Shown here piece after piece: positions 4,040 through 20,151 of a stretch of 64,000 nt of DNA. The DNA is from a virus: the IMG/VR virus record IMGVR_UViG_3300045988_170068; one strand, given 5' to 3'. Every line of letters begins with the position of its first letter. The first letter of the stretch is position 1. A model generated the notes under the pieces. The model was not told the DNA's origin. It saw nothing but the letters and a program-made list of their open reading frames with translations, and made no database searches. The position numbers were made by a program, and so were the translations under genes.

Positions 4040-4420
4040 ATGAAAAAATTCAGATCCGTACTTTCTGTAATATTTGGAGTTATCTGTGCATTCAGTTTCT
4101 TTATCTGCATCAGTATCAATGCAGATCATCCTGATTGGTTCAAGTATCTCATGATTGGATTCATTACCTTTGTAGTGTCTTTCTTCCTTGCAAGCTTCTG
4201 CTACAACCCTCATAAATACATTCGTCATTTGTATGCGTCTTTCATGACCATTGCAACTAAGATTCATATTCATCGTAGACCTAATAGCAAACTTGCTGTA
4301 AGTGTCAGAGCAAGATTTTCCTCCAGGTATGGTGGTCGTTATAATAAGAAAATCAACTACAAGAAATTCTATCGTTATGCTCTTAGCTACTATGATAGAG
4401 ATCATTTTCAGGAGGTATGA
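4040..4420 (+). CDS. small membrane protein (two predicted TM helices)
   Basis: GGAGG upstream of the ATG. Hydrophobic N-terminal half and basic C-terminus. Confidence 0.55.
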   Translation: MKKFRSVLSVIFGVICAFSFFICISINADHPDWFKYLMIGFITFVVSFFLASFCYNPHKYIRHLYASFMTIATKIHIHRRPNSKLAVSVRARFSSRYGGRYNKKINYKKFYRYALSYYDRDHFQEV

Positions 4421-6909
4421 AAAAGTTGAATCTGAATGAAGAACAGAAGCGAGCAGTTGAGTGCGATGATGATCTAATTCTATGCATGGCTGGAGCAGGG
4501 TCTGGCAAAACAACTGTTCTCATTGAAAGAATAAGCAGACTTTGTGAAAAAGAAGATCCAAAGAGTATTCTTGCTCTTACATTTACAAATGCCGCAGCAT
4601 TTGAAATGAAGGACAGATACATAAGACGAAATCCTGGAAAGCTTGTACCAGAATTTAGAACATTCCACAGTTTCTGCTATTCTGTTCTTTGCACAGATTA
4701 TGAAATCCGAAATAAACTTGGATATCATTCTGTTCCGAGCATATGCGACGAAGCAAAGATGAAGCGTATTCAGAATACTGTTTATCTTGAATTAGGTCTA
4801 CATCTTTCTAAAGATGAATTAAATGGTAAGGTTAAATTAAGTCCAAAGCATAAGCAAGAATTTATTTTATACAAAAAGCGAATTAAAAAAGTAATGAAAG
4901 ACGAAAACATTATCACTTTCGATGAATTGTCTTCGTCTATCTGTGATTTGTTCTTCAACGAAGACCAATTGACCAATAAATACAAAGATCGATTCAAGTA
5001 TCTTCTTATTGATGAATTTCAGGATACAAGTCCTGAACAGTGGAAATTTGCAACTTCGTTCAAACATTCTAAAATTTTTCTTGTCGGCGATGAGATGCAA
5101 TGTCAACCGGCAGGGTCAATTGTAACTATGGCTGACATGACAAAAAAGAAAATAGAAGACCTTCAAATTGGGGATTATGTCTTATCATACAATAGGCGAG
5201 AAGGACGATATTTAAGATGCCTGAATTACAATAGCGGAAATTTGAATAGATATACAAGCAAAGTTACTGATATTTCTAAACATTTTGCGACAGACGTTGT
5301 TAAATTAGTTACAAGAAACCATGAAAGCAGATATACAAAATCGCATTTAACTTATGCAAGAATACATTTTCCGGGAAACGAAAATGCTTTTGTAACTTAT
5401 CTAATGAGTAACAAAAAAGGATGGTGGAGAGTAGGAAGTACTAAATTGTTTCTAACTTCTCAAAATGACTACTTTGGTCCAAGACTTAGATTGCAAGAAG
5501 AAAAGGGAAATAAAATATGGATACTTGGTGTTTACTCATCTCAAAATGAAGCTTGGATGAATGAACAGCTTGTTGCATATAAATACGGTATTCCTCAAGT
5601 TACATGGCAGCATAAAAATGTTAAATTTTCATTAGATGATGTAGACTATCTTTATTCAAATTTAGGCGATTTATCTGAAAAAGCGAATATTTGCTTGAAA
5701 GCTTACAGCAGGGACATAAACTATCCATTCTTTACAGATAAAGATAAAAATAACCATTTTTCAAAGCTTCATTTATTTGAATGCCGTGTCGGTAATATAA
5801 TCCCTGGTATATTTGATATTGTTGTTCCTGAAGAAAAATTTACATCAAATAATTATGTCGAACTTCGCAATTCATACGAACTAATTGAATCTGTTGTTGA
5901 CGAACCCGACCAGTATGTATATGGGTTAAATATTGATAATACACACAATTATGTTAGTGACGGAATACTAACTCATAATTGCATATACGCCTTCAGGGGC
6001 GCTGACAGCTCTATCATTAAGATGCTGTCAGAACTTGATTCTTGGACTCATATCTATCTTCCTAGAAATTATAGATCAACAACGCAAATATGCAGTTTCG
6101 CAAATAAAATTGTTCGTCAGTCTGGTAGCAAACTGAAGATAGAACTGATTTCTGATAGGTCAGGACCTAGTGTTACTGTTCTTCCTTCTACATCAAACAG
6201 ATATTCTGAACCTATTGGAATAGATGATTTTGCTACTTTCTGCGAAATGAATAGAAAGCTTGAAGGAACAACAGCAATTTTATGTAGATCAAACTCAGAA
6301 GTAGCAGAAGTTTGCAGAATGCTTGATGGTGCAGGACTAAACTATCTTACAGGTAAGAAGAACACAGACTACAAGTATATTCTTAAATCTGTAAAGGATA
6401 ACGAATATCTAGCAGACTGGCTTGCTTCTTACTTGAATGCAGATAAATACGCTGATTTTATTCGTATTCAGTCAATTGAAAATATGAGCAGAATTGATGT
6501 AATTGTAGATTATTTTTCAAATGTAAGGAAGATCCAAGAGAGACTTAGAAAAGTGGTAACTATTAGAAAAGCGTTGAAAGACCCTTCTAGGTCAAGGATG
6601 TCTATGGCAGTCGATATATTGACTATCTGTGGATTCAATCCCTTAGATAATCAAATTGAAGTAGACGAAAATTGTTCGTCTGACGAACTTTTTGAAGCAA
6701 TTACAGCAGTGATTGAAGAGAAGATTGTATCAGATCTATATGTAGGAACAATTCACAGCTCTAAGGGACTTGAATATGACAATGTATTTCTTTTCAATGT
6801 GAACGACTATTCATTCAAATTGAACAAAGAGGATCAGTGGAATCTTTATTATGTAGGTGTTACAAGGGCAAAGACTAATCTTGTTATATTCAAAGGAGAC
6901 GCATACTAA
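4417..6909 (+). CDS. UvrD/PcrA-like superfamily 1 DNA helicase, interrupted by an intein
   Basis: Walker A AGAGSGKTTV. Motif II LLIDEFQDTS. Motif III is split as VGDEMQ | intein | CIYAFRGAD. C-terminal VGVTRAK. The start could instead be TTG 4426, because GGAGG lies only 1 nt from ATG 4417. Confidence 0.85.
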   Translation: MKKLNLNEEQKRAVECDDDLILCMAGAGSGKTTVLIERISRLCEKEDPKSILALTFTNAAAFEMKDRYIRRNPGKLVPEFRTFHSFCYSVLCTDYEIRNKLGYHSVPSICDEAKMKRIQNTVYLELGLHLSKDELNGKVKLSPKHKQEFILYKKRIKKVMKDENIITFDELSSSICDLFFNEDQLTNKYKDRFKYLLIDEFQDTSPEQWKFATSFKHSKIFLVGDEMQCQPAGSIVTMADMTKKKIEDLQIGDYVLSYNRREGRYLRCLNYNSGNLNRYTSKVTDISKHFATDVVKLVTRNHESRYTKSHLTYARIHFPGNENAFVTYLMSNKKGWWRVGSTKLFLTSQNDYFGPRLRLQEEKGNKIWILGVYSSQNEAWMNEQLVAYKYGIPQVTWQHKNVKFSLDDVDYLYSNLGDLSEKANICLKAYSRDINYPFFTDKDKNNHFSKLHLFECRVGNIIPGIFDIVVPEEKFTSNNYVELRNSYELIESVVDEPDQYVYGLNIDNTHNYVSDGILTHNCIYAFRGADSSIIKMLSELDSWTHIYLPRNYRSTTQICSFANKIVRQSGSKLKIELISDRSGPSVTVLPSTSNRYSEPIGIDDFATFCEMNRKLEGTTAILCRSNSEVAEVCRMLDGAGLNYLTGKKNTDYKYILKSVKDNEYLADWLASYLNADKYADFIRIQSIENMSRIDVIVDYFSNVRKIQERLRKVVTIRKALKDPSRSRMSMAVDILTICGFNPLDNQIEVDENCSSDELFEAITAVIEEKIVSDLYVGTIHSSKGLEYDNVFLFNVNDYSFKLNKEDQWNLYYVGVTRAKTNLVIFKGDAY
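5101..5979 (+). mobile_element. intein (293 aa) in helicase motif III
   Basis: Starts with Cys (CQPAGSIV...). Block B TKSH. Ends ...VYGLNIDNTHNYVSDGILTHN, followed by a +1 Cys. The flanking exteins rejoin to the canonical VGDxxQxIYxFRGA. Confidence 0.8.
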
Positions 6910-11366: not shown

Positions 11367-11441
11367 TGGGGCGTAGCCAAGCGGAAAGGCAGTAGACTTT
11401 GACTCTATTATTCGCTGGTTCGAATCCAGCCGTCCCAGCCA
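11367..11441 (+). tRNA. tRNA-Gln(TTG)
   Basis: Hand-folded cloverleaf with U1:A72, anticodon loop CTTTGAC, T-loop TTCGAAT and encoded CCA. Confidence 0.85.
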
Positions 11442-11644
11442 GTGGTCAATTAGCTATTGACTGATGTCAGAGTAATCAGCTAACCTGACAAAGAATGAAA
11501 ATGATCGCTGAAAACTGCTACTAAAGGATGCGTCCTCGTTATTTACCTTAAGATAGGGGCTAATCATCTCCGGATTATTAGTTGATAATGAGTAGCGTGA
11601 CAATCTAAGCGGTAAGCTGATGAGTTAGTGTAGGAGGAATATAA

Positions 11645-12028
11645 ATGAAAATTCTTCGTCATCAAAACATAGAAGGAATGGCGAGAGTTGGATTTACTTC
11701 AGATAGCTACGAAGTATACGTCAATACAGACGATGGTGGAAAAATTCCTCACTTTCATTACAGACTGAAAAATGATTGGAATAAGTTTCACACATGTATA
11801 AAAATTGAAAGTCCTGGATATTTTCATCATACAGGCAAAGAAAGCGTGTTGAATTCTAAACAAATTAGATCGCTCATTCGATTTCTTAAGTCACCTGTAT
11901 CTCTATCACAATATAGTGAAAAATTTTCTAACAACTTTGAATTGATTATTTTTCTATGGAACATAAACAATTCGGATGTTATAGTTGATCCTGAAGCAAA
12001 AATTCCTGATTACTATCAACTAAATTAA
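11645..12028 (+). CDS. hypothetical protein (DUF4160-like PHFH motif?)
   Basis: GGAGG upstream of the ATG. GGKIPHFHY motif. Family assignment is weak. Confidence 0.45.
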   Translation: MKILRHQNIEGMARVGFTSDSYEVYVNTDDGGKIPHFHYRLKNDWNKFHTCIKIESPGYFHHTGKESVLNSKQIRSLIRFLKSPVSLSQYSEKFSNNFELIIFLWNINNSDVIVDPEAKIPDYYQLN

Positions 12029-12031
12029 ATC

Positions 12032-12053
12032 CAATCGTTATTAAGTATGTAGC
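12032..12053 (+). promoter_or_regulatory. 22-nt promoter-like box (CAATCGTTATTAAGTATGTAGC)
   Basis: Extended copy of the AATCGTTAT..ATGTAG box, 48 nt upstream of repeat unit C. Confidence 0.45.
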
Positions 12054-12101
12054 AGCTAATAAGCTGTAACATAAGGAGCTCACAATCCTGCCTAAGTAGA
12101 T

Positions 12102-12134
12102 GTCTCATTAGATATATAATGAGTGAATTGAAAT
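12102..12134 (+). repeat. solitary type I-C-like CRISPR repeat unit C
   Basis: GT-CTCATTA-GATATA-TAATGAG-TGAATTGAAAT: perfect 7-bp stem plus an 11-nt tail that differs by 1 nt from the I-C handle TGGATTGAAAT. Confidence 0.6.
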
Positions 12135-12235
12135 CGCACAAACTAGAAAAGAGTGAGTGGCAAGGAATATGCCAGGAATGATTCTAAGCTTGACATGCAA
12201 GTACAACCGGGTGAGAAACTAGTCCCGGTAAATAT

Positions 12236-12310
12236 TGTCAATTAGTTTATTAGGTAAAACATCATAGCTTAAGATATGATAAGTAGGTTCAAATCCTACA
12301 TTGACAGCCA
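12236..12310 (+). tRNA. tRNA-like gene with aberrant anticodon arm (8-nt loop GCTTAAGA; anticodon TAA?)
   Basis: Perfect acceptor stem TGTCAAT/ATTGACA. D arm GTTT/AAAC. T arm GTAGG-TTCAAAT-CCTAC. Encoded CCA. The only well-paired anticodon stem, TCATA/TATGA, leaves 8 loop nt and a 3-nt variable region. Confidence 0.5.
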
Positions 12311-12339
12311 TCGGTCATTGTTGACTGACGCCCTACCGA

Positions 12340-12378
12340 ATATGCTATCTTGGATCATCAGTAGCATATGCAGTTTTT
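12340..12378 (+). terminator. terminator-like hairpin
   Basis: ATATGCTA/TAGCATAT stem with a 14-nt loop, then GCAGTTTTT. Confidence 0.45.
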
Positions 12379-12430
12379 CAACTCTTTTTCTGCTCATCGA
12401 GTGTGTTGATAATAAAAGAGTCATATACAT

Positions 12431-12522
12431 GGCGCGATACCGAAGTGGTCACAACGGAGCGGTCTTGAAAACCGTAGGCGGTGATGAGCCGTCCGTGGGT
12501 TCGAATCCCACTCGCGCCGCCA
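12431..12522 (+). tRNA. tRNA-Ser(TGA)
   Basis: Acceptor GGCGCGA/TCGCGCC, anticodon loop CTTGAAA, long variable arm, T-loop TTCGAAT and encoded CCA. Confidence 0.9.
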
Positions 12523-12747
12523 TGCCTTTTCATATGCTGACATTAGATTGTCAAGTTGATGAAAGTGAAACCAACTATGCTGGCAGGTTGTCGACGGGTT
12601 GAAGAGCCGTAGAGTCTAAACTATTCTCCTCTATTCTAGAAAGAGTCGGAAAGCTAGGTCCCGTAGTAGCAGCCGAAAAGTATCCTAAAACGATAGGCGT
12701 TAAAACATGTTTTATAGGTGACAGCCTGGAAAGACAGGCAAATATAT

Positions 12748-12824
12748 TGCAGGGTGGACAAGTAGCTAAGTCGCCAGCTTCATGCGCTGGAAATCGCAGG
12801 TTCAAATCCTGCCCACTGCAACCA
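12748..12824 (+). tRNA. tRNA-Met-like (CAT) with bulged acceptor stem
   Basis: Anticodon arm CCAGC-TTCATGC-GCTGG and T arm GCAGG-TTCAAAT-CCTGC are clean. The acceptor TGCAGGG pairs with CC(A)CTGCA only if one A is bulged. The D-loop lacks GG. Confidence 0.5.
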
Positions 12825-13152
12825 TTGTCTACTGGTCACCATCTACATACGACAATCAAAACTGCATAGGAGATGGGATGGGCAACGGCAGCCCTGATAA
12901 GTGAAGCGATGTTCGAGTCATCAACCTGATCCTGTTCGACTCAGGCAGGGCATGGTGCAAAACTTATCAAGAGGAACTAAGTACCTGCCTCGCTTCGGAT
13001 AGCAAAGAAGGCGTTAGTAGTAATCGAAAAACTACTCGCGGTTACAGGGAGGGAGCGGCGTTATAGGTAAACCTCCTGGGTGTTCTGCTATCGTGCACCT
13101 TAGAAAGGCGAAGCTTTTCAGTTAGGACTAATCCGGCCAGATAGCAAAATAT

Positions 13153-13226
13153 GCGGATATAGTGTAACGGTAACATGCGACTCTTCCAAAGTCGTGTTGC
13201 GGGTTCGAGTCCCGTTATCCGCTCCA
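13153..13226 (+). tRNA. tRNA-Gly(TCC)
   Basis: Acceptor GCGGATA/TATCCGC, anticodon loop CTTCCAA, T-loop TTCGAGT and encoded CCA. Confidence 0.9.
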
Positions 13227-13244
13227 TAGAGGAAGGTGACAAAT

Positions 13245-13580
13245 ATGTCTGTTTATAAATGCCCAATTTGCGGAGGAAGAGGATTTGTTCCTTGCGGATT
13301 CTATTCAAGTCAAACATATGATGGAAGCTCAGTGACTAATTCTACTTCAAACGAAGTTTGTAGAAGCTGTCATGGTAGAGGAATCGTATTTGATGAATTC
13401 TTAGGATCAACTTCAAATAGTATTCATAGATGTTGCAGTAATTGTGAAATGAACGATGGTTTGGTTTATACATCTAATCCCCCTAAGTACAGATGTACTT
13501 TATCTGGTTATTTCAATGAAGGAACACATGTATGCAATCTAGATGATATTTTGTCAAATGGAAATAACCAATCTAAATAA
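13245..13580 (+). CDS. Cys-rich protein with DnaJ-type CxxCxGxG zinc-finger repeats
   Basis: CPICGGRGFV and CRSCHGRGIV. ATG 13245 is preceded by GGAAGGTGA. Confidence 0.5.
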   Translation: MSVYKCPICGGRGFVPCGFYSSQTYDGSSVTNSTSNEVCRSCHGRGIVFDEFLGSTSNSIHRCCSNCEMNDGLVYTSNPPKYRCTLSGYFNEGTHVCNLDDILSNGNNQSK

Positions 13581-13625
13581 GTTGATACTCGGTAGGGCGC
13601 TGCGGTGTGCTTGACCGTGTGTTTC

Positions 13626-13661
13626 CGTCCAGGTGTTGGCGCACCTGGACGCTTTCTTTTT
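13626..13661 (+). terminator. rho-independent terminator
   Basis: 10-bp GC-rich stem CGTCCAGGTG/CACCTGGACG followed by CTTTCTTTTT. Confidence 0.8.
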
Positions 13662-13668
13662 CTATCTA

Positions 13669-13692
13669 GTAAATTATTAACGAATGATTAAG
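13669..13692 (+). promoter_or_regulatory. 24-nt box GTAAATTATTAACGAATGATTAAG (copy 1)
   Basis: Identical 24-mer at 59339-59362. Both copies lie just upstream of TTGACT -35 elements. Confidence 0.5.
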
Positions 13693-13696
13693 ACTA

Positions 13697-13725
13697 TTGA
13701 CTTTTCACAAGAATCGTTATATAAT
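13697..13725 (+). promoter_or_regulatory. sigma-A-type promoter (TTGACT-17-TATAAT)
   Basis: -35 at 13697-13702, -10 at 13720-13725, 17-nt spacer. The spacer and -10 contain the AATCGTTAT box. Confidence 0.65.
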
Positions 13726-13778
13726 ATGTACATAAGTCAGCCAACACATCAAAAAGCTTCAAAGCTAAGGAGAACAAA

Positions 13779-14009
13779 ATGAACGGATACATTATCAAAG
13801 CTACATACCTCACCGGTCCGAACACAGGAAGATCTTATTTCCTTCAAAAAGCGCTTGAAAGAAGCAACATGCTTGAACACGTATTAGAGAAGAGATACAG
13901 AGAGTATCAATCTAAAAACGGGTACAATGTATCGAAATACATGATCAACGAATTGATGAAATACACACCGTATTTCGTCAAAACTGTTCACAATTCGGAT
14001 GTTCACTGA
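13779..14009 (+). CDS. hypothetical protein
   Basis: 76-aa ORF with AAGGAG upstream of the ATG. Confidence 0.5.
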   Translation: MNGYIIKATYLTGPNTGRSYFLQKALERSNMLEHVLEKRYREYQSKNGYNVSKYMINELMKYTPYFVKTVHNSDVH

Positions 14010-14022
14010 GGAGGTATTCATA

Positions 14023-14295
14023 ATGATCATCAATTCTCGTTTTGAAGCAAGAAAGTCTGTTGAGCATAGTTTCGAGCTTGCGTCCAAGCTTCATATGACT
14101 GTCATCAATGTCTTTCATAAGGACTTGATTACAGGTGAAATTGTTCTCACTGATATGTTCAGCCACGATAGTATTCAAGCCGTTACATGGAGAGACAATT
14201 ACCTTGAATCGTTAAAGAAGCTAGAGGTACCTTACATTTGCTATGTGGGAGATCATTTCACAGAAGCATCTGGCTACTTAGACTTTGAGGAGTGA
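14023..14295 (+). CDS. hypothetical protein
   Basis: ATG 14023 lies 7-8 nt after GAGGAGG. The track start at 13999 lacks an SD. Confidence 0.5.
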   Translation: MIINSRFEARKSVEHSFELASKLHMTVINVFHKDLITGEIVLTDMFSHDSIQAVTWRDNYLESLKKLEVPYICYVGDHFTEASGYLDFEE

Positions 14296-14300
14296 CAATC

Positions 14301-14597
14301 ATGGATAGAAAAGTTTTTGAAGCTTTATCTTCTGCAAATAAATTGATCAACCATCAACTTGATTGTCAAAAGGCCGCTATTCTTGATATAAAAAAGGCCA
14401 TTGAAGAAACATCGAAAGCTTTCAATATCACTTACAAACAGGGCCGCAGTGAAGGATTTGAATCCGAAACTATTGAAGACACAGCAGGAATATATGCTCT
14501 GCTTGTTGGAGCAAAATCTGAAATCGAATGTGCTGTTTCTAAACTTGAGGAAGCTAAGAACATGATGCCCAATTTTGATAAAGGAAAGAATATATGA
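14301..14597 (+). CDS. hypothetical protein
   Basis: ATG 14301 follows GAGGAG. Confidence 0.5.
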   Translation: MDRKVFEALSSANKLINHQLDCQKAAILDIKKAIEETSKAFNITYKQGRSEGFESETIEDTAGIYALLVGAKSEIECAVSKLEEAKNMMPNFDKGKNI

Positions 14598-14989
14598 AAC
14601 GAATAATCAAGAAATCGGCTGTAATCGGGATGGCTAAAGAACCGTCAAGAGGTGTTTTTTGGATAGTTGATGGAAAAGTCCTGTCATTTCCTTTTTACAA
14701 TGACATAACTTCTCCCGGCGTTGCTAAATCCGGATTGACTTACAACCACAAAAATTTGTGGCCCGATGTTAAACCTAAAGGATGCAATAAACCGTATAAT
14801 TACTACCCTCGTGGACGAGTGGAGCTAGGAAAGAAAAATCCTATCATATATGTAAATCCTAACTTCGATAAATATGATTTAGCAGAAGTTAGAAAGGATT
14901 TTGGACTTATCAATGAGCCTAAAGTAGTATTTGATAATTCAGATCATTACAAATGTTATCTAGATGACGGATGGAAGCCAGATAAATAA
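14594..14989 (+). CDS. hypothetical protein (FWIVDG...YYPRGRV motifs)
   Basis: 131-aa ORF coupled to the upstream gene (ATGA). I cannot name the family. Confidence 0.5.
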   Translation: MKRIIKKSAVIGMAKEPSRGVFWIVDGKVLSFPFYNDITSPGVAKSGLTYNHKNLWPDVKPKGCNKPYNYYPRGRVELGKKNPIIYVNPNFDKYDLAEVRKDFGLINEPKVVFDNSDHYKCYLDDGWKPDK

Positions 14990-15011
14990 CAATCGTTATA
15001 TAAAATGTAGT
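14990..15011 (+). promoter_or_regulatory. 22-nt promoter-like box (CAATCGTTATATAAAATGTAGT)
   Basis: Extended box ending 10 nt before tRNA-Leu(TAA). Confidence 0.5.
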
Positions 15012-15021
15012 AATCAAATTT

Positions 15022-15106
15022 GCTGGTGTGGTGGAACAGGCAGACACAGGGGACTTAAAATCCCTCGGAGAAATCCTTACGAGTTCGAATCTCGTCACCA
15101 GCACCA
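15022..15106 (+). tRNA. tRNA-Leu(TAA)
   Basis: Acceptor GCTGGTG/CACCAGC, anticodon loop CTTAAAA, long variable arm, T-loop TTCGAAT and encoded CCA. Confidence 0.9.
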
Positions 15107-15108
15107 CT

Positions 15109-15140
15109 GTCGTAGTCAAATTGATTACGTGGATTGAAAC
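15109..15140 (+). repeat. solitary type I-C-like CRISPR repeat unit A
   Basis: GT-CGTAGTC-AAATT-GATTACG-TGGATTGAAAC, 32 nt. It has a 5' GTCG, a 7-bp stem (one G-U) and the tail CGTGGATTGAAAC, as in canonical I-C repeats. Begins 2 nt after the tRNA CCA. Confidence 0.7.
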
Positions 15141-15160
15141 GAATCCCGTCACCAGCACCA
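15141..15160 (+). repeat. 20-nt duplicate of the tRNA-Leu(TAA) 3' end, directly abutting repeat unit A
   Basis: GAATCCCGTCACCAGCACCA versus 15087-15106 GAATCTCGTCACCAGCACCA: 19 of 20 identical. Confidence 0.85.
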
Positions 15161-16134
15161 AATGAGGGTTTGTCCTCAAGTAATGCTACTGAAAGTGCAT
15201 CCTTACGGTGGAGGTATTGGTTAACCGTTATTAGATTATTGTAAAATACAATAGAAAATAAAAGCGAGGTTCAATTCAACAGTAGTTCAATTTTGTTAAA
15301 TGAATTACTTTTGATGGTCCGGTACGATTCCGGAGGGATTGTCTTCATTCCTAACGCTTAGACCTATCTTTTCTATATAGCTGGCCACTATTCTGCCAAT
15401 CGACGGATTGGATGAGGTTTCGACCATCAGATAAACGGCTGAAAATGTATAGGCGTTTACTGCTTAACGAAATGAAGCGGGCTGTTGTTCATCTCAGGAT
15501 AAGAAGATGGCGTGCCAGCCGACATTGTTAGCCTATTTCGGTAGGTATTCGGTTAGAATAAGGAATGCTACTTATTCGGGAGCTAAATTGAATGTGCATC
15601 CTTCTGAAGTTGGAGTCTCGAAGATAACGTTTCTGAGAGATAGATTTTAAGTTAGTACTTAGAATTGAGGTTAAACTTGTCAGCTCCTAAAAGTTAATAT
15701 CGAGCAAACTCACCATAAAGTGTTCTAGCTGCTAATCTAAAAGAGAATGAGATGATTAGAAGGATTGAGCGAATCTAGATGCTCGTTATTATATTTGCCA
15801 TCTGCTGGTCCTACACAGCAGTGAGGATGGTAGGACATCCAATAACTAAGCGAACAGCCGAAATAGCGCCGGACACCTCGCCCGTTGAGGAGGGAATTTG
15901 AACAAAAAGGTGAGATATGTTCACACCAGAACATAAGGGCATATGGAATGGTGGAAATGCTTACTAAACCAAGCTGCCAGGTTATCTGATAAGAAGTCAG
16001 GATTTGAGGCAGATAAGTGATAGAATGAAGTAATCTCATTTGACTTTGAGAAGAACCTTTCATATTATCACTTAATGAGTTCTATGCGTTGCAAACACTT
16101 CTCTCATTCGGGAAAGAAAAGAAGGGTTAGACAT
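15161..16134 (+). ncRNA. ~1 kb ORF-free, structure-rich block between tRNA genes (candidate large ncRNA and/or ORF-less intron-like element)
   Basis: No plus-strand ORF. Long-range pairs TGATGGTC 15312-15319 with GACCATCA 15422-15429. Pseudoknot-like CTGCTG-GTCCTAC-A-CAGCAG...GTAGGAC near 15800-15838. An 18-mer is shared with the polA intron. Confidence 0.4.
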
Positions 16135-16209
16135 GGCGCCTTGGTCAAGTGGTTAAGACACGGCCCTTTCACGGCTGTAACACGGGTTCGAGTCCCGTAG
16201 GCGTCACCA
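16135..16209 (+). tRNA. tRNA-Glu(TTC)
   Basis: Acceptor GGCGCCT/AGGCGTC, anticodon loop CTTTCAC, T-loop TTCGAGT and encoded CCA. Confidence 0.9.
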
Positions 16210-16300
16210 TCACATCATATAAGATGTGTTAAGTGTGATATATGGTAACAGATTCCGACCTAAGCGCACGGGTCTTCTAGAGGCCTTCGGAATCGAATAT

Positions 16301-16376
16301 CCGGGTGTAGCTCAGATGGTAGAGCGCGTGGTTTGGGACCACGAGGCCGCTGGTTCGAAACCAGTCACTCGGACCA
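16301..16376 (+). tRNA. tRNA-Pro(TGG)
   Basis: C1:G72 acceptor CCGGGTG/CACTCGG, anticodon loop TTTGGGA, T-loop TTCGAAA and encoded CCA. Confidence 0.9.
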
Positions 16377-16406
16377 TTTTTCACCCAACAGGAATGGGGT
16401 AGTAGT

Positions 16407-16949
16407 ATGAAGAAATTGATTAGACGAATGCCTGTAGTGAAAAAGTATATTGATATTATAGTCAATATTGACGACTACAAAAATGATTCATCTATTGCTG
16501 CTAATTCATTCACAAAAGCAAGAACATTTCAACCATCCGTTAAGAAAAAGTTCAAGATTTCAGATGAAGCGTTAAATATGTATACTGATTTCTTAAATTG
16601 CATACTCGAAGTAATTGTTAGAAACGGATTGAAAATATCTAAGCAATATCAATCTAAGAAAGGATACACATACTATATTCAGGTTGATCATATTGGATTA
16701 GTTGACGGAACAAAAATAAAGTACGAAATAACATTCAGGATAAACAATAATGTTAATCCTACTTTGAACAAAGGGCCTAAATTTGAGGGCAGCAGACAAA
16801 TGGTCATGCCTATAATGAAAAATATCAAGCTTGGAAAATTTGATCCTGCTGTCTACTCCGAAGCAATGTTTCATCTAAATAAAGTTTGTAAAGGTATACG
16901 AGAAGACAACAGAGATATTCTAGTAAACGAAGACATCTATTTCAATTGA
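16407..16949 (+). CDS. hypothetical protein
   Basis: 180-aa ORF between tRNA clusters with a weak SD. Confidence 0.5.
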   Translation: MKKLIRRMPVVKKYIDIIVNIDDYKNDSSIAANSFTKARTFQPSVKKKFKISDEALNMYTDFLNCILEVIVRNGLKISKQYQSKKGYTYYIQVDHIGLVDGTKIKYEITFRINNNVNPTLNKGPKFEGSRQMVMPIMKNIKLGKFDPAVYSEAMFHLNKVCKGIREDNRDILVNEDIYFN

Positions 16950-16957
16950 AATATGTA

Positions 16958-16979
16958 GAATCGTTATATAACATGTAGG
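16958..16979 (+). promoter_or_regulatory. 22-nt promoter-like box (GAATCGTTATATAACATGTAGG)
   Basis: Extended box followed by about 100 nt of ORF-free hairpin-containing sequence. Confidence 0.45.
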
Positions 16980-17080
16980 CGGCATCCATCTCGGATACAA
17001 TACTACAACGTAGATAGAGAAAACATTTTCTCTGTAATGAGAGGTAAGATACTCTTGAAGTAGCCTAAAAAAATAAATTA

Positions 17081-17102
17081 GCATCGTTATATATCATGTA
17101 GC
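17081..17102 (+). promoter_or_regulatory. 22-nt promoter-like box (GCATCGTTATATATCATGTAGC)
   Basis: Extended box ending 9-10 nt before tRNA-Thr. The leader CATCAAATAT resembles TAATCAAATT upstream of tRNA-Leu(TAA). Confidence 0.5.
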
Positions 17103-17111
17103 ATCAAATAT

Positions 17112-17187
17112 GCTGGATTAGCTCAGTTGGCAGAGCGCGTGATTTGTAATCTCGAGGTCAAGGGTTCGAGTCCCTTATCCAGCTCCA
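17112..17187 (+). tRNA. tRNA-Thr(TGT)
   Basis: Acceptor GCTGGAT/ATCCAGC, anticodon loop TTTGTAA (one U-U mismatch in the stem), T-loop TTCGAGT and encoded CCA. Confidence 0.85.
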
Positions 17188-17189
17188 TT

Positions 17190-17221
17190 GCCACAATTTA
17201 TTAGATTGTGCGGATTGAAAC
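17190..17221 (+). repeat. solitary type I-C-like CRISPR repeat unit B
   Basis: GC-CACAATT-TATTA-GATTGTG-CGGATTGAAAC, 32 nt, with the same 2+7+5+7+11 layout as unit A. Begins 2 nt after the tRNA-Thr CCA. Confidence 0.65.
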
Positions 17222-17276
17222 CATCTCATCTCCTTCCTGATCCAGTTTCTGGTCTGGATAAAAACCATGTAAATAT

Positions 17277-17352
17277 GCTGATGTAGCTCAACAGGTTAGA
17301 GCCGGCGACTTATAATCGTCAGATTCGAGTTCGACTCTCGGCGTCAGTACCA
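17277..17352 (+). tRNA. tRNA-Ile(TAT)
   Basis: Acceptor GCTGATG/CGTCAGT (two G-U pairs), anticodon loop CTTATAA, T-loop TTCGACT and encoded CCA. Confidence 0.8.
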
Positions 17353-17545
17353 GGGGTAACCAAACTACCTTAATCGTTTGGTGAGGACTCAAGTTACTCG
17401 AGTTAGGTCAGCTTGACATCCAATAGTGAGGACCTACGACAGGTGAGAATGACGGCTTAGTCCTTTCTTGAATAAACAGAACCTGACCCATTGGCCAAAA
17501 GGGTGAACGCTGCTTCAAGGTAAAGAAAGGCAACAAATTCTATAT

Positions 17546-17622
17546 GGGAGCATAGCTCAGTTGGTTAGAGCGCATGACTGTTAATCATGATGTCGAAGGT
17601 TCGAGTCCTTCTGTTCCCGCCA
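17546..17622 (+). tRNA. tRNA-Asn(GTT)
   Basis: Acceptor GGGAGCA/TGTTCCC, anticodon loop CTGTTAA, T-loop TTCGAGT and encoded CCA. Confidence 0.9.
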
Positions 17623-18170
17623 GCGCCTATATCAGTCTAGGTCTTGAAATGATATAGAGACCAATGCATTATCTTTTTAGAAAGGTAGTGTATCTGATGA
17701 AAAAGAGATCATCAACTCTCGGCGAATTATAACTTGACGAATTTTTCTTTTGAAACAAAGAAGTAGCAGGTTCGTCTCTGCGCTTAATCTACTGAACTGC
17801 AATGTTGATGTAAGCAGTAATTAGGTTCCCAAACCAATTCAGGGAGATTAAGAAAAAGTTTGCTTATTTAGTAGAAAGAGGGTTGGAGGGGCACAGCAAG
17901 TAGAATAAAAGGACCTATCCAGAATGCCAGGATTGACATCATAAAATGATGTCAATGAGAGCATCAGTATTAGACCACGGTGAAGCGATGTGATGATGAT
18001 AGGAATTGGGACTATCTAATTTCATCTAATGCCGGTATACATCTGGTTGTGTAGGTAGGCAACAAATTTGAAAGCTATTACAGGATGTGCCAAGGAGTAG
18101 AAGTAATCACCTCTGTCTACTGTGTATTTCTTCTAAATAAGTTCAACTTTTTTATTAAGGAGTTTGAAAA
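17623..18170 (+). ncRNA. ~550-nt ORF-free hairpin-rich block (candidate structured ncRNA)
   Basis: No ORF of 60 aa or more on either strand. Perfect 10-bp hairpin TTGACATCAT-AAA-ATGATGTCAA at 17932-17954. CTATATCA/TGATATAG near 17626-17662. Confidence 0.3.
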
Positions 18171-18386
18171 ATGAAAACAATCACTTTTATCAGTTATGAT
18201 AAATATCCAAAAACATTTAGAAAGTTTCACATTTTTAAGAAGCGTTTTTCTTCGTTATCAGATATTGCTAGATTCCTGCAAGTTTCTAGTAAAATCTATT
18301 TGAAAAATCCGATGAACGAGTTGTCTAAAGACGAACTAAGAATTCTTTCAATGAAAGTTCGATCGTTAAATAAAATGAAGGTGTAG
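18171..18386 (+). CDS. hypothetical protein
   Basis: 71-aa ORF with AAGGAG upstream. Its last 10 nt overlap the start of tRNA-Lys. Confidence 0.4.
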   Translation: MKTITFISYDKYPKTFRKFHIFKKRFSSLSDIARFLQVSSKIYLKNPMNELSKDELRILSMKVRSLNKMKV

Positions 18387-18452
18387 CTCAGTAGGTAGAG
18401 CACCTGCCTTTTAAGCAGGCTGTCAAGAGTTCGAATCTCTTCACCTTCACCA
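18377..18452 (+). tRNA. tRNA-Lys(TTT)
   Basis: Acceptor GAAGGTG/CACCTTC, anticodon loop CTTTTAA, T-loop TTCGAAT and encoded CCA. Confidence 0.9.
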
Positions 18453-18458
18453 AAATAT

Positions 18459-18543
18459 GCACCTGTGGTGGAACTGGCAGACACGCTTGACTTAGGATCA
18501 AGTGCCTTCAGGTTTAAGGGTTCGAGTCCCTTCAGGTGCACCA
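18459..18543 (+). tRNA. tRNA-Leu(TAG)
   Basis: Acceptor GCACCTG/CAGGTGC, anticodon loop CTTAGGA, long variable arm and encoded CCA. Confidence 0.9.
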
Positions 18544-18548
18544 TATAT

Positions 18549-18587
18549 GGAGGATTAGCTCAGCTGGTTAGAGCAACTGACTTACAT
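18549..18587 (+). pseudogene. 5' fragment of a disrupted tRNA-Val(TAC) gene
   Basis: GGAGGAT-TA-GCTC-AGCTGGTTA-GAGC-A-ACTGA-CTTACAT. No complementary TCAGT follows. Confidence 0.7.
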
Positions 18588-18630
18588 CTTTAGTGTAACC
18601 CAAATAGTAATTACCTAATATAAATGTGAG

Positions 18631-19455
18631 GTGATAAATTTGAGCAAACTTAAAGATGTAATGTCAAGAATATCAGATATGACGAACGGGAGGTATTCAA
18701 TAGCAGGAGAATTCAAAGGATATGATCAACCCTTATCAATAAGATGCAATATTCATAAACAAGTATTTGATATAAAACACGCACAATATTTACTTGAGGT
18801 CTGTAAAAATCCTAACAAAATATTCTATGGATGCAAAGAATGTAGAAAAGAAAAGGACGGCACAATTGAATTAAATTGCGAAATTTGTGGAAAGAAAATT
18901 ATCAGACCTAGAGGTTGGGCAAATGGAAACAAAAGCAAATTTGCTTTCTGTTGTAGAGAACATAAGAATATTGCCCAAAGGTTAGAATCAGGATTTGGTG
19001 ATATGATTCCATCGCATTATGGAACAAGAAAAGATTACCGATACATAGCTTTCAGAATATATCCGCATAAATGCGCAGTTTGCGGCTGGGACGAGGATGA
19101 AAGAATATTGGAAGTTCATCATAAAGATATGAACAGAGAAAACAATTCCGACGATAACTTAATTATCCTTTGCCCAAATTGCCATTCAAAAATATCAAAA
19201 GGATTGTATATGCTGCAAGGTAATTTACTTGTTGATCCCGATGATAACTACTTAAAGTTCTTTAGTTTGCATACTTACAGAACTAAATCTCCTGGTATGT
19301 CTTGTAAAGTAATTTGCGTAGAAGATGGCTTAGTTTTCAAGTCAATAACAGAATGTGCAAATCACTACAGAGTATCGGATACAACTATCAATTATGCTAC
19401 TGTATCTGATAATAAATTATGCAAATCCTTAGATAAGCATTTTGAGAGGATATAA
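18631..19455 (+). CDS. HNH homing endonuclease
   Basis: HHKDMNRENNSDDNLIILCPNCH. Several CxxC pairs. C-terminal VFKSITECANHY DNA-binding-like module. The start is GTG 18631, TTG 18640 or ATG 18661. Confidence 0.8.
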   Translation: MINLSKLKDVMSRISDMTNGRYSIAGEFKGYDQPLSIRCNIHKQVFDIKHAQYLLEVCKNPNKIFYGCKECRKEKDGTIELNCEICGKKIIRPRGWANGNKSKFAFCCREHKNIAQRLESGFGDMIPSHYGTRKDYRYIAFRIYPHKCAVCGWDEDERILEVHHKDMNRENNSDDNLIILCPNCHSKISKGLYMLQGNLLVDPDDNYLKFFSLHTYRTKSPGMSCKVICVEDGLVFKSITECANHYRVSDTTINYATVSDNKLCKSLDKHFERI

Positions 19456-19457
19456 AT

Positions 19458-19532
19458 GCACCGTGTCCTCGGTGGTCTGAGGGCTTGGCTTACATCCAAG
19501 TACATTGAGTTCGATTCTCAAACGGTGTACCA
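19458..19532 (+). tRNA. tRNA-Val(TAC), divergent replacement copy
   Basis: Acceptor GCACCGT/ACGGTGT (G1-U72), anticodon arm CTTGG-CTTACAT-CCAAG, T arm TTGAG-TTCGATT-CTCAA and encoded CCA. Starts 2 nt after the HNH stop. Confidence 0.8.
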
Positions 19533-19559
19533 AAAGTTCGAATCTTGCATTCTCCACCA
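19533..19559 (+). pseudogene. 3' fragment of the disrupted tRNA-Val gene
   Basis: ..GTTCGAATCTTGC-ATTCTCC-A-CCA. ATTCTCC pairs with the GGAGGAT acceptor strand at 18549. The 5' strand of the T stem is missing. Confidence 0.6.
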
Positions 19560-19565
19560 TTATTT

Positions 19566-19642
19566 GGCCAAGTAGTTCAGTTGGTTAGAACGCCAGCCTG
19601 TCACGCTGGAGGTCGAGGGTTCGAGCCCCTTCTTGGTCGCCA
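19566..19642 (+). tRNA. tRNA-Asp(GTC)
   Basis: Acceptor GGCCAAG/CTTGGTC, anticodon loop CTGTCAC, T-loop TTCGAGC and encoded CCA. Confidence 0.9.
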
Positions 19643-19647
19643 TATTT

Positions 19648-19722
19648 GGGTCCGTATTTCAATGGGAGAAAGCTTCTTTTGCACGGAAGAGGTTGCGTGT
19701 TCGAATCACGTCGGATCCACCA
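19648..19722 (+). tRNA. tRNA-Ala(TGC)
   Basis: Acceptor GGGTCCG/CGGATCC with the G3-U70 identity pair, anticodon loop TTTGCAC and encoded CCA. Confidence 0.9.
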
Positions 19723-19843
19723 TTTGAGACTTCAGCCAAGTTGGCTAGAAAGTCGTATTAAATGACATACAATGAGACGATACCAAGACTTTAGTTCGTT
19801 ACAGAGCGGTGACTGAATGTCAAATCCCTTATGTCATTTATCT

Positions 19844-19920
19844 GGGCCTTTAGCTCAGTTGGTTAGAGCCTCCGGCTCATAACCGGATCGTCCCGGGTTC
19901 GAATCCCCGAAGGCCCACCA
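19844..19920 (+). tRNA. tRNA-Met(CAT) (elongator or Ile2-type)
   Basis: Acceptor GGGCCTT/AAGGCCC, anticodon loop CTCATAA, one C-C mismatch in the T stem and encoded CCA. Confidence 0.8.
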
Positions 19921-20074
19921 TAATTGGTACAACACGACTGTAACGGCTCCCGCGGTTTAGAGTTGTATCCCGTTTCTTAGTTGAAGCGTGAAGTGTCAAG
20001 AGAGCCTCACCAGACGAGCCATATGGGCACCACCTAGCGGTGAAAAGATATGATAAGCTCGTCAATCATTAAAT

Positions 20075-20151
20075 ACCTCAGTAGCTCAGCTGGATAGAGC
20101 AACTGCCTTCTAAGCAGTAGGCCACAGGTTCGAGTCCTGTTTGAGGTGCCA
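20075..20151 (+). tRNA. tRNA-Arg(TCT)
   Basis: Acceptor ACCTCAG/TTGAGGT, anticodon loop CTTCTAA, T-loop TTCGAGT and encoded CCA. Confidence 0.85.

Follow-up and report, generated by a model that had tools for sequence, protein, structure and literature searches.

Solitary type I-C-like CRISPR repeats in the tRNA island of an uncultured gut phage: possible RNA anti-CRISPR decoys

Analysis of a 64,000 nt stretch of the IMG/VR virus record IMGVR_UViG_3300045988_170068 (the window; all positions are in the numbering of this whole stretch) reveals three short hairpin-forming sequences, designated units C, A and B, that lie within an island of tRNA genes. They are established by their sequence and geometry, by their family resemblance to type I-C CRISPR repeats, by their solitary state, by the fusion of two of them to tRNAs, by stems that covary beside a conserved tail, and by a presence/absence polymorphism among closely related phages. 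We judge the chances to be about even that they are phage-borne solitary I-C-family repeats, co-transcribed with tRNAs, that act as RNA anti-CRISPR-like decoys for host Cas5c or Cascade.

Three solitary repeat units and their resemblance to I-C repeats

All three units are on the + strand. Unit C (12102-12134; GTCTCATTAGATATATAATGAGTGAATTGAAAT) is composed of 2 nt, a 7 bp stem, a 6 nt loop and the 11 nt tail TGAATTGAAAT. Unit A (15109-15140; GTCGTAGTCAAATTGATTACGTGGATTGAAAC) starts 2 nt past the CCA of a tRNA-Leu(UAA), and unit B (17190-17221; GCCACAATTTATTAGATTGTGCGGATTGAAAC), which has a 5′ GCC and the tail CGGATTGAAAC, starts 2 nt past the CCA of a tRNA-Thr(UGU). An initial annotation of this DNA had given the units these coordinates and sequences, which are correct, and had recognized in them a common layout of a hairpin followed by an 11 nt tail. 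The motif GRATTGAAAY occurs at exactly three sites in the 64 kb with both strands searched, all on the + strand and all corresponding to units C, A and B, and each is preceded by a 7–8 bp hairpin that ends 1 nt before the site. The shared tail is (T/C)G(G/A)ATTGAAA(C/T), with the handle AUUGAAAC. Because hairpins of at least 7 bp end at only 0.8% of window positions, the occurrence of three complete units by chance is improbable (Poisson P ~6e-7); this value, together with the ranking of the units as the top three in the window by the I-C covariance model described below, leads us to reject a chance origin. RNA folding of the units reproduces the drawn hairpins and leaves the tails unpaired, with energies from −5.7 to −7.2 kcal/mol (−6.4 kcal/mol for unit C), and units A and B can also be drawn with an 8 bp stem and a 3 nt loop. 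The units have no T-run, and their interpretation as intrinsic terminators is rejected.

There are several features that relate the units to type I-C repeats. First, a covariance model (R1), built solely from 18 repeats that publications assign to I-C and with the units left out, was used to search both strands of the window (128 kb) with filters off. Its top three hits are the units, aligned end to end, with scores of 21.7 (C), 21.7 (A) and 14.3 (B) bits and E-values of 0.008, 0.008 and 0.48 respectively; the next-best hit in the window scores 12.7 bits and has no hairpin. Variants of the units in sister phages score up to 34.2 bits (E ~7e-6 to 9e-5). Second, the I-C repeat is described as a 2 nt overhang, a 7 bp stem, a 5 nt loop and an 11 nt tail, which Cas5c cleaves after nucleotide 21, remaining on the 5′ handle; Cas5c recognizes the cut site, the following U22-G23-G24 and the handle, and the loop and 5′ overhang are not read (PMC8524198). 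The units fall within this geometry (taken as 31–33 nt, with a 2 nt overhang, a 7–8 bp stem, a 4–6 nt loop and an 11 nt tail), and the pattern of conservation across 14 unit variants coincides with these published Cas5c determinants. By analogy with that work, the predicted Cas5c cuts are at 12123/12124 (C), 15129/15130 (A) and 17210/17211 (B). The designation of the units as type I-C-like, made initially from the sequence, is therefore supported by an independent model that picks exactly these three and by a geometry equal to that of the published Cas5c substrate; a repeat family with the same handle and hairpin geometry, for which the initial annotation had proposed a search, is indeed found in the I-C repeats, which share both.

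The departures of individual units from the commonest form also have parallels, the CGG that begins the tail of unit B having a counterpart in a B. saguini repeat and the TGA that begins that of unit C in a repeat variant of W. coagulans. A genome scan for the GTCACA...TGTGTGGATTGAAAY repeat subfamily yielded at least 120 array loci, and the open reading frames (ORFs) beside 52 of the subfamily arrays are mostly Cas1c (17 ORFs, best E 1.6e-151), Csd2 (9), Cas4 and Cas2. When the units are compared with 111 repeats, comprising the genome and viral loci among the matches listed plus the 18 literature repeats, the nearest array repeat is 78% identical for A, 81% for B and 79% for C. Closer similarities are seen with sister-phage variants. 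Variant A′ and the array repeat of a Lachnospiraceae metagenome-assembled genome (L113; among the matches listed) are 88% identical and have the same stem with its G-U pair; A′ stands just as close, at 88%, to the Weizmannia coagulans I-C repeats, and variant D reaches 91% identity with a Blautia array repeat (again among the matches listed). In the 8 kb L113 contig the I-C-type array lies directly beside cmr4-cmr5-cmr6, which suggests that a type III-B module there shares I-C-type repeats. The last 8 nt of the units are identical to the ATTGAAAC ending of the listed I-B repeats, and systems other than I-C may be able to read the units.

Neither the covariance model nor a direct search finds a second repeat, full or partial, within 200 nt of any unit. 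The units thus form neither arrays (with spacers of 33–37 nt) nor mini-arrays (at least two repeats round a spacer), and correspond instead to lone repeats, single and intergenic on a virus; the possibility that they are decayed mini-arrays was rejected because there is no partial second repeat. Among the 64 ORFs in the window there is no strong Cas hit (among the top 25 families listed per library), and the 10 kb upstream of the window, as read from two sister contigs, contains no Cas gene and no further unit. Both the solitary state of the units and the lack of cas genes in the window had been remarked upon in the initial annotation; the first is upheld, and the second accords with the families listed.

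The tRNA-Leu(UAA) (15022..15106, + strand; ARAGORN, Rfam 55 bits) is an 85 nt variant with an encoded CCA that travels with unit A, and the tRNA-Thr(UGU) (17112..17187, + strand; ARAGORN, Rfam) also encodes its CCA. ARAGORN places the ends of the two tRNAs at 15106 and 17187, each 2 nt before a unit, in agreement with the spacing noted at the outset. A box of sequence ATCGTTAT-N5-ATGTA is present in ten copies in the window, all on the + strand, versus 0.19 expected; the copies precede tRNAs and ORFs, and their positions suggest a promoter-like function. Near the units, and likewise on the + strand, there are copies at 12034..12052 (with a trailing G), 14992..15010 and 17083..17101, and a further copy near tRNA-Thr at 16960-16978. 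The copies before tRNA-Leu and tRNA-Thr are 11 nt and 10 nt upstream of them, including the trailing G, consistent with the earlier figure of about 10 nt, and the distance from the first box to unit C is corrected from 48 to 49 nt.

Each unit is followed by a second, non-repeat hairpin. The flank of unit C (12135..12174, +) contains a pseudo-spacer at 12135-12169 and a TGGCA/TGCCA hairpin at 12158-12174. That of unit A (15141..15178, +) begins with a 20 nt copy of the 3′ end of the resident tRNA-Leu (15141-15160), which the initial annotation did not include, and continues into the resident trailer; the pseudo-spacer is at 15141-15175 and a TGAGG/CCTCA hairpin at 15163-15178. The flank of unit B (17222..17259, +) carries a conserved hairpin, ATCCAG-TTTCTGGT-CTGGAT, at 17240-17259, and is found without the unit in one sister contig (L061), where the hairpin has the compensatory change GCCAG/CTGGC. 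Including variants A′ and D, these hairpins begin 19–25 nt past the units.

Several other structures adjoin the units. When tRNA-Leu, unit A and the remnant are folded together (15022-15160), an alternative fold appears in which the 5′ acceptor strand of the tRNA pairs with the distal remnant. Downstream of unit A, a stretch of about 1 kb free of ORFs (15161-16134) contains a RAGATH-36-like structured RNA at 15315-15481 (+), which aligns to the model from end to end, with an insertion of 55 nt, and scores 43.4 bits (E ~3e-7), below the gathering score of 70. Unit C itself lies in a conserved, structured-looking, ORF-free stretch (12052-12235, +) between a box and an odd tRNA (12236-12310, +) that is kept in all relatives; ARAGORN designates the latter 'ta', with an unusual loop and no anticodon assigned, and the Rfam tRNA score is 49 bits. 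Directly upstream of the tRNA-Leu/unit A module are four small ORFs of no known family (13779-14989, +), headed by a canonical promoter, TTGACT-17-TATAAT, that follows a strong terminator at 13626-13651 (region 13697-14989, +). These ORFs are possible anti-defence genes. They and the island ORF at 16407-16949 have no match in Pfam or PHROG; the four also have no match in the PDB, and the island ORF has no relatives in IMG/VR.

Variation among sister phages and the sequence at insertion sites

Exact copies of window proteins are present on contigs of 145–150 kb from many human-gut metagenomes, and sister phages of about 146 kb, for which ERZ27229773 k119_8938 is an example of a full genome, are likewise from human-gut metagenomes. 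Among deposited phages in INPHARED there is no close relative: DNA matches are at the level of tRNAs only, and two window proteins have no match. Seven IMG/VR contigs from one metagenome share a serine hydroxymethyltransferase (SHMT) protein that is 97–99% identical, and carriers and non-carriers of the units are found together in one metagenome. Among phages related at this level, the tRNA island (11367-20151; compared with L057-L063) is mosaic: the bodies of tRNA-Leu(UAA) and tRNA-Thr differ, tRNA-Met, tRNA-Val and tRNA-Cys are variably present, and L061 and L063 contain a truncated 5′ half of tRNA-Leu. The units are accessory in the same sense, their presence varying among sister phages with 97–99% identical SHMT, and additional variants (A′, D, E and C″) are found there.

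The site after tRNA-Leu is occupied by unit A and 20 nt left over from the 3′ end of the resident tRNA in the window and in L326 (where the unit A allele is identical), by A′ at seven loci, by a form with a 5 bp stem, a 14 nt loop and the same tail in L322, and by an unrelated 57 nt insert in L328, with nothing inserted in L058, L060, L323 and L324. The L328 insert (L328:1716-1772) is rich in hairpins and lies in the slot of A′, which suggests that small RNA cassettes have a hot spot in the tRNA-Leu trailer. The site after tRNA-Thr contains variants B1–B4 of unit B (L057-L060, L318), nothing in L061, and unit E with a remnant of another tRNA-Thr allele in L320. Unit C is present in the window and at nine loci (L014, L063, L334-L340), and a different small hairpin, GAAATATCTTCTAGAATATTTC, is at this site in L057-L062. 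Unit D is located between two box copies (L058, L060) and unit C″ before the odd tRNA (L061, L062, L017); units C and D are not adjacent to tRNAs. Two regularities are apparent. First, the left junction of the tRNA-linked units is repeatedly CCA plus 2 nt. Second, a unit and the tRNA body upstream of it are exchanged together, and the flank on the downstream side keeps the form that it has in genomes lacking the unit; where unit A is missing, sister phages have a different, 88 nt tRNA-Leu body. No other tRNA-fused I-C repeats were found in IMG/VR among the at least 118 loci listed.

The stems change and remain paired. An alignment of 14 distinct units retains complementarity in 97.6% of the cells of the six outer stem pairs. 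Both partners vary in four of these pairs, and none of 500 shuffles reaches the observed covariation; pairing falls to 22–60% in slid registers. Unit A and the A′ of L057, for example, differ by two compensatory pair changes. The covariation of the stems, first suspected from the three units in the window, is thus supported by 14 variants, and the examination of related phages proposed at that time finds the tail conserved and the stem complementarity kept.

A further feature becomes apparent when alleles sharing the sequence that follows a unit are compared and the trinucleotide directly 5′ of the shared stretch is read in the unit-less allele. TTC, which is the protospacer-adjacent motif (PAM) of type I-C systems (bioRxiv 10.1101/2024.12.27.630466), precedes the shared flank in unit-less alleles at four of seven insertion sites. 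At the Leu T-loop (unit A) the unit-less allele reads gggTTC followed by GAATCCCGTC, with 35/35 identity to 15141-15175 (L058, L318, L323); at the Thr T-loop (unit E) it reads cggTTC followed by GAATCCGACC, with 30/35; in the Leu trailer (A′) it is gcaTTC followed by AAGGGC, with the first 24 of 24 shared; and at the C site it is atatTTC followed by CGCACAA, with 35/35 identity to L059 and 1–3 mismatches in L057 and L058. Unit-less alleles that might serve as targets read TTC plus GAATCCCGTCACC... or TTC plus CGCACAAACTAG..., and the orientation is that of repeat then spacer, as in an I-C array. In carriers the flank is preceded by AAC or AAT, neither of which is a PAM. The three exceptions are B, with GTT (a one-base shift gives TTC), D, where TTT or ATC is found, and C″, with TCC and an additional base. 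With a TTC frequency here of 0.019–0.023, four of seven sites corresponds to a naive P of ~4e-6 to 9e-6 (about 1e-5), or to P = 2e-4 if the two sites in T-loops are treated as a single case. As caveats, TTC is a constant feature of T-loops, the tail is similar to a T-arm, and two of the 'empty' alleles are alternative cassettes. A search of IMG/VR for other junctions between a tail and a T-loop gave 54 hits, none with a unit hairpin beside a tRNA and most of them representing one conserved coding-sequence motif common to related contigs.

Clues to the host point to gut Bacillota. The DnaB and PolA proteins are nearest to those of Bacillus, Clostridium and Streptococcus phages (28–36% identity), RecU, a SleB-type hydrolase, an amidase and a holin are encoded upstream of the window, and one canonical TTGACT-17-TATAAT promoter is present, all of which would be in keeping with such hosts. 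Type I-C systems are common in gut Bacillota. Elsewhere in the window there are genes for QueC, a QueF-like protein, GTP cyclohydrolase I, PTPS and a radical SAM protein, a set of the 7-deazaguanine/queuosine type, as well as for ThyX and dCMP deaminase, which together suggest that the DNA may be hypermodified. A UvrD-like helicase gene (4417-6909, +) is interrupted by an intein, and the sister contig L342 has an intein-less form of 537 aa. An HNH homing endonuclease ORF (18631-19455, +) lies within the tRNA island at a place where several sister phages have tRNA-Val.

Decoys, guides or remnants

The position of the units suggests how they might act as decoys. The box promoters would transcribe them on the tRNA strand, A and B as parts of the 3′ trailers of tRNA-Leu and tRNA-Thr, and host tRNA processing would release them. 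Host Cas5c would then recognize the stem base and the 11 nt tail, cleave after nucleotide 21–22 and remain on the 11 nt handle, such that Cascade subunits would be loaded with phage RNA in place of host CRISPR RNAs (crRNAs); the outcome would be a competitive, Racr-like inhibition of type I-C immunity. A set of units that differ in their stems may serve more than one Cas5c variant. Since Cas5c stays on the handle, the RNA downstream of the unit should become the body of the loaded complex, and complexes of this kind could also guide, the RNA after the handle corresponding to a TTC-flanked protospacer in unit-less sister phages. Solitary repeats, including one of I-C type (RacrIC1), inhibit CRISPR-Cas by competing for Cas proteins (PMC10651486), and the variable presence of the units in near-identical phages is typical of accessory anti-defence elements. 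Transcription, processing, Cas binding and inhibition by the units are steps that we infer.

Several observations weigh against decoys. The stems of the units are AT-rich and weak (−5.7 to −7.2 kcal/mol), the 78–81% identity to the nearest repeat compared is below the 90% criterion for published solitary repeat units (SRUFinder), and the closest array among those listed, that of L113, is flanked by type III-B cmr genes and not by I-C genes. None of 1337 spacers from 120 I-C arrays (among the matches listed) matches the window or its relatives, a metagenome scan for a host array with an A′/B/E-type stem gave only phage copies and one phage mini-array, TTC is not depleted in the phage (observed/expected 1.33), and there is no known acr gene next to the units. 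The trailer would have to be released from tRNA precursors that encode CCA. Finally, a pure decoy model leaves the TTC before the flank in unit-less alleles unexplained.

This last point gives support to the idea, put forward like that of RNA anti-CRISPRs in the initial annotation, that the units are guide modules: in sister alleles lacking the unit, the sequence that would follow it is a protospacer flanked by TTC. As such, which we consider possible and on balance rather unlikely, they would be selfish single-repeat elements, each set at the exact former position of a TTC PAM, that hijack CRISPR against sister phages, for competition or homing. After cleavage by Cas5c, the handle and adjacent phage sequence would constitute a crRNA-like RNA, its target being the same locus in a unit-less co-infecting sister with a TTC PAM; host Cascade-Cas3 would damage the rival allele, and its repair with the carrier as template would transfer the unit along with the upstream tRNA. 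The result would be an RNA-guided homing or allele-replacement drive with no encoded protein, to which the carrier would be immune, its PAM having given way to the repeat tail. Such a drive fits the occurrence, at four of the seven sites, of a TTC that adjoins the shared flank on its 5′ side (P ~4e-6 to 9e-6, conservatively 2e-4), the flank identities at A, C and E (35/35, 35/35 and 30/35), the repeat-then-spacer orientation, the hairpins that start 19–25 nt after A, B, C, A′ and D, the swapping of the upstream tRNA body along with the unit beside a resident downstream flank, and the presence of carriers and non-carriers in the same metagenome. There is also a precedent in host I-C solitary repeats, composed of one repeat and an unrelated 3′ hairpin, which give functional crRNA-like RNAs of 48–50 nt with TTC/TTA PAMs (bioRxiv 10.1101/2024.12.27.630466). 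However, the three sites without an exact TTC (B, D and C″) do not conform, T-loops, with their universal TTC and their likeness to the T-arm-like tail itself, account for two of the four TTC cases, and the 'empty' alleles at the A′ and C sites are alternative cassettes. Moreover, at ~39–46 nt the predicted RNAs fall short of the known I-C crRNA-like RNAs in length, 19 of the first 20 positions of guide A also match the tRNA-Leu of the carrier itself, with a TTC PAM, and homing of this kind is not known to have been described. The same signature would be left by array-templated recombination. The units might alternatively be scars without present function, repeats copied from a CRISPR array or a phage-borne repeat-spacer during recombination or repair at a spacer/protospacer match; removal of the PAM would have let the phage escape the spacer, leaving what are now neutral remnants in an insertion-tolerant tRNA island. 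Scars account for the PAM-adjacent collinear junctions and the replaced upstream sequence, for the confinement of the units to the ORF-poor island, and for copies that look damaged, such as B4 with a mismatch at the stem base and the L322 form with its 5 bp stem and 14 nt loop. Nonetheless they seem improbable, because the tail is kept and the stems are paired across 14 variants from many samples, the recurrent left junction at CCA plus 2 nt is not expected from random capture, and no array with these repeat sequences was found in the metagenome scan for the A′/B/E type; at least four very different stems would, in addition, need several host repeat families for one phage species.

Two further explanations appear much weaker. 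A unit and its downstream sequence might direct Cascade to repress host cas or toxin promoters, as a repeat-like element with a following sequence resembles the viral Cracr RNAs of types V-A, I-E, I-F and I-C (bioRxiv 10.1101/2024.10.29.618823). The downstream sequences, however, are phage flanks that pre-exist without units, and are therefore not dedicated spacers; in 0.79 Mb of array-flanking host DNA, in which Cas3-side promoters were not sampled, there is no TTC with a seed match of at least 10 nt. For these two reasons we regard a Cracr role as the least probable of the explanations. It is scarcely easier to believe that the units are unrelated to CRISPR, being RNA-processing or regulatory hairpins of tRNA trailers whose I-C resemblance is coincidental, even though hairpin cassettes of different kinds (the 57 nt insert in L328 among them) have a hot spot in the tRNA-Leu trailer and the tail resembles the T-arm consensus. 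The resemblance extends over the full length of the repeat, 5′ GTC and cut-site UGG included, A′ has the stem of a real array repeat and matches it at 88% identity, units C and D are not beside tRNAs, and a T-run terminator is lacking.

Relation to known systems and significance

Solitary repeat units and Racrs are an already established class. Like the Racrs, including RacrIC1 (PMC10651486), each unit is a lone repeat on a phage, with I-C geometry, no second repeat, no cas genes in the window and a promoter-like element upstream. Unlike them, two of the window units are joined to tRNA 3′ ends by a 2 nt linker inside a tRNA island, and three units with unrelated stems are present in the genome of the window's phage. 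The Racr catalogue contains repeats at least 90% identical to a known repeat, whereas the window units are AT-rich and 78–81% identical to the nearest repeat compared; their phage is large (~146 kb) and uncultured, there is no adjacent known acr gene, and in sister alleles what follows the unit is linked to a PAM. A linkage to tRNAs is mentioned neither in the Racr paper (PMC10651486) nor in a review of CRISPR in mobile elements. With the I-C array repeats, such as those of B. halodurans (GTCGCACTCTTCATGGGTGCGTGGATTGAAAT) and W. coagulans (GTCACACTCCTCGTGAGTGTGTGGATTGAAAT), the units share a length of 32–33 nt, the 5′ GTC, a 7–8 bp stem and the 11 nt tail, and the natural tail variants GCGGATTGAAAT and GTGAATTGAAAT of the array repeats fall within the tail pattern of the units. 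They differ in being outside arrays and not beside cas genes, and in having AT-rich rather than GC-rich stems.

Host I-C solitary repeats give crRNA-like RNAs (crlRNAs) that control Nezha, Gabija and CRISIS systems (bioRxiv 10.1101/2024.12.27.630466). The units resemble these and the viral Cracr RNAs in having one repeat-like hairpin, an 11 nt handle, a guide-like segment, a non-repeat 3′ hairpin and a TTC PAM; the guide-like segment of the units, though, is collinear phage sequence with a full match to sister alleles and not a partial match to a host promoter. I-C-like repeats with AT-rich stems are also carried by an unrelated gut phage (L319, an ERZ1034876 contig of 2916 nt), in a decaying mini-array with one intact repeat (39 bits) and two degraded ones that adjoins YqeY-like and phosphoesterase genes. 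Its intact repeat, GTCACAATCTATATGATTGTGTGGATTGAAAT, is identical to B2 at 28/32 positions, but it is part of a repeat-spacer-repeat-spacer-repeat arrangement with spacers of 33 and 35 nt and the window units have no second repeat; the two spacers have no match to the phage.

Small RNAs placed right after a tRNA and freed by tRNA processing enzymes are familiar from the tRNA-microRNA genes of murine herpesvirus 68 (MHV68) and from synthetic polycistronic tRNA-guide RNA arrays. Those are eukaryotic or engineered, whereas the phage tRNAs encode CCA and release of the units is only putative. The homing endonuclease genes of phage tRNA regions are polymorphic in presence, have their target only in the empty allele, where insertion disrupts it, and are exchanged with co-converted flanks. 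The units are similar in their presence/absence polymorphism, in the PAM-bearing site that is found only in the unit-less allele and in the co-exchange of flanking sequence, but they encode no nuclease, and cleavage would have to be borrowed from host Cascade-Cas3.

What is new here is the fusion to tRNAs, the presence of several divergent units per genome, their divergence past detection thresholds, the exchange of cassettes with tRNA alleles, and the TTC signature. The mimics keep only the Cas5c determinants, and since they are less than 90% identical to any known repeat compared, published searches would miss them. The coupling of units to tRNAs suggests that tRNA promoters and tRNA processing are used to express anti-defence RNAs. 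If the units do act as guides, then a 32 nt repeat alone would turn the host CRISPR system on rival phage alleles, which would represent a new form of inter-phage conflict and protein-free homing. This phage family is common in human gut metagenomes and its units vary between near-identical genomes, so that population data could test their selective value.

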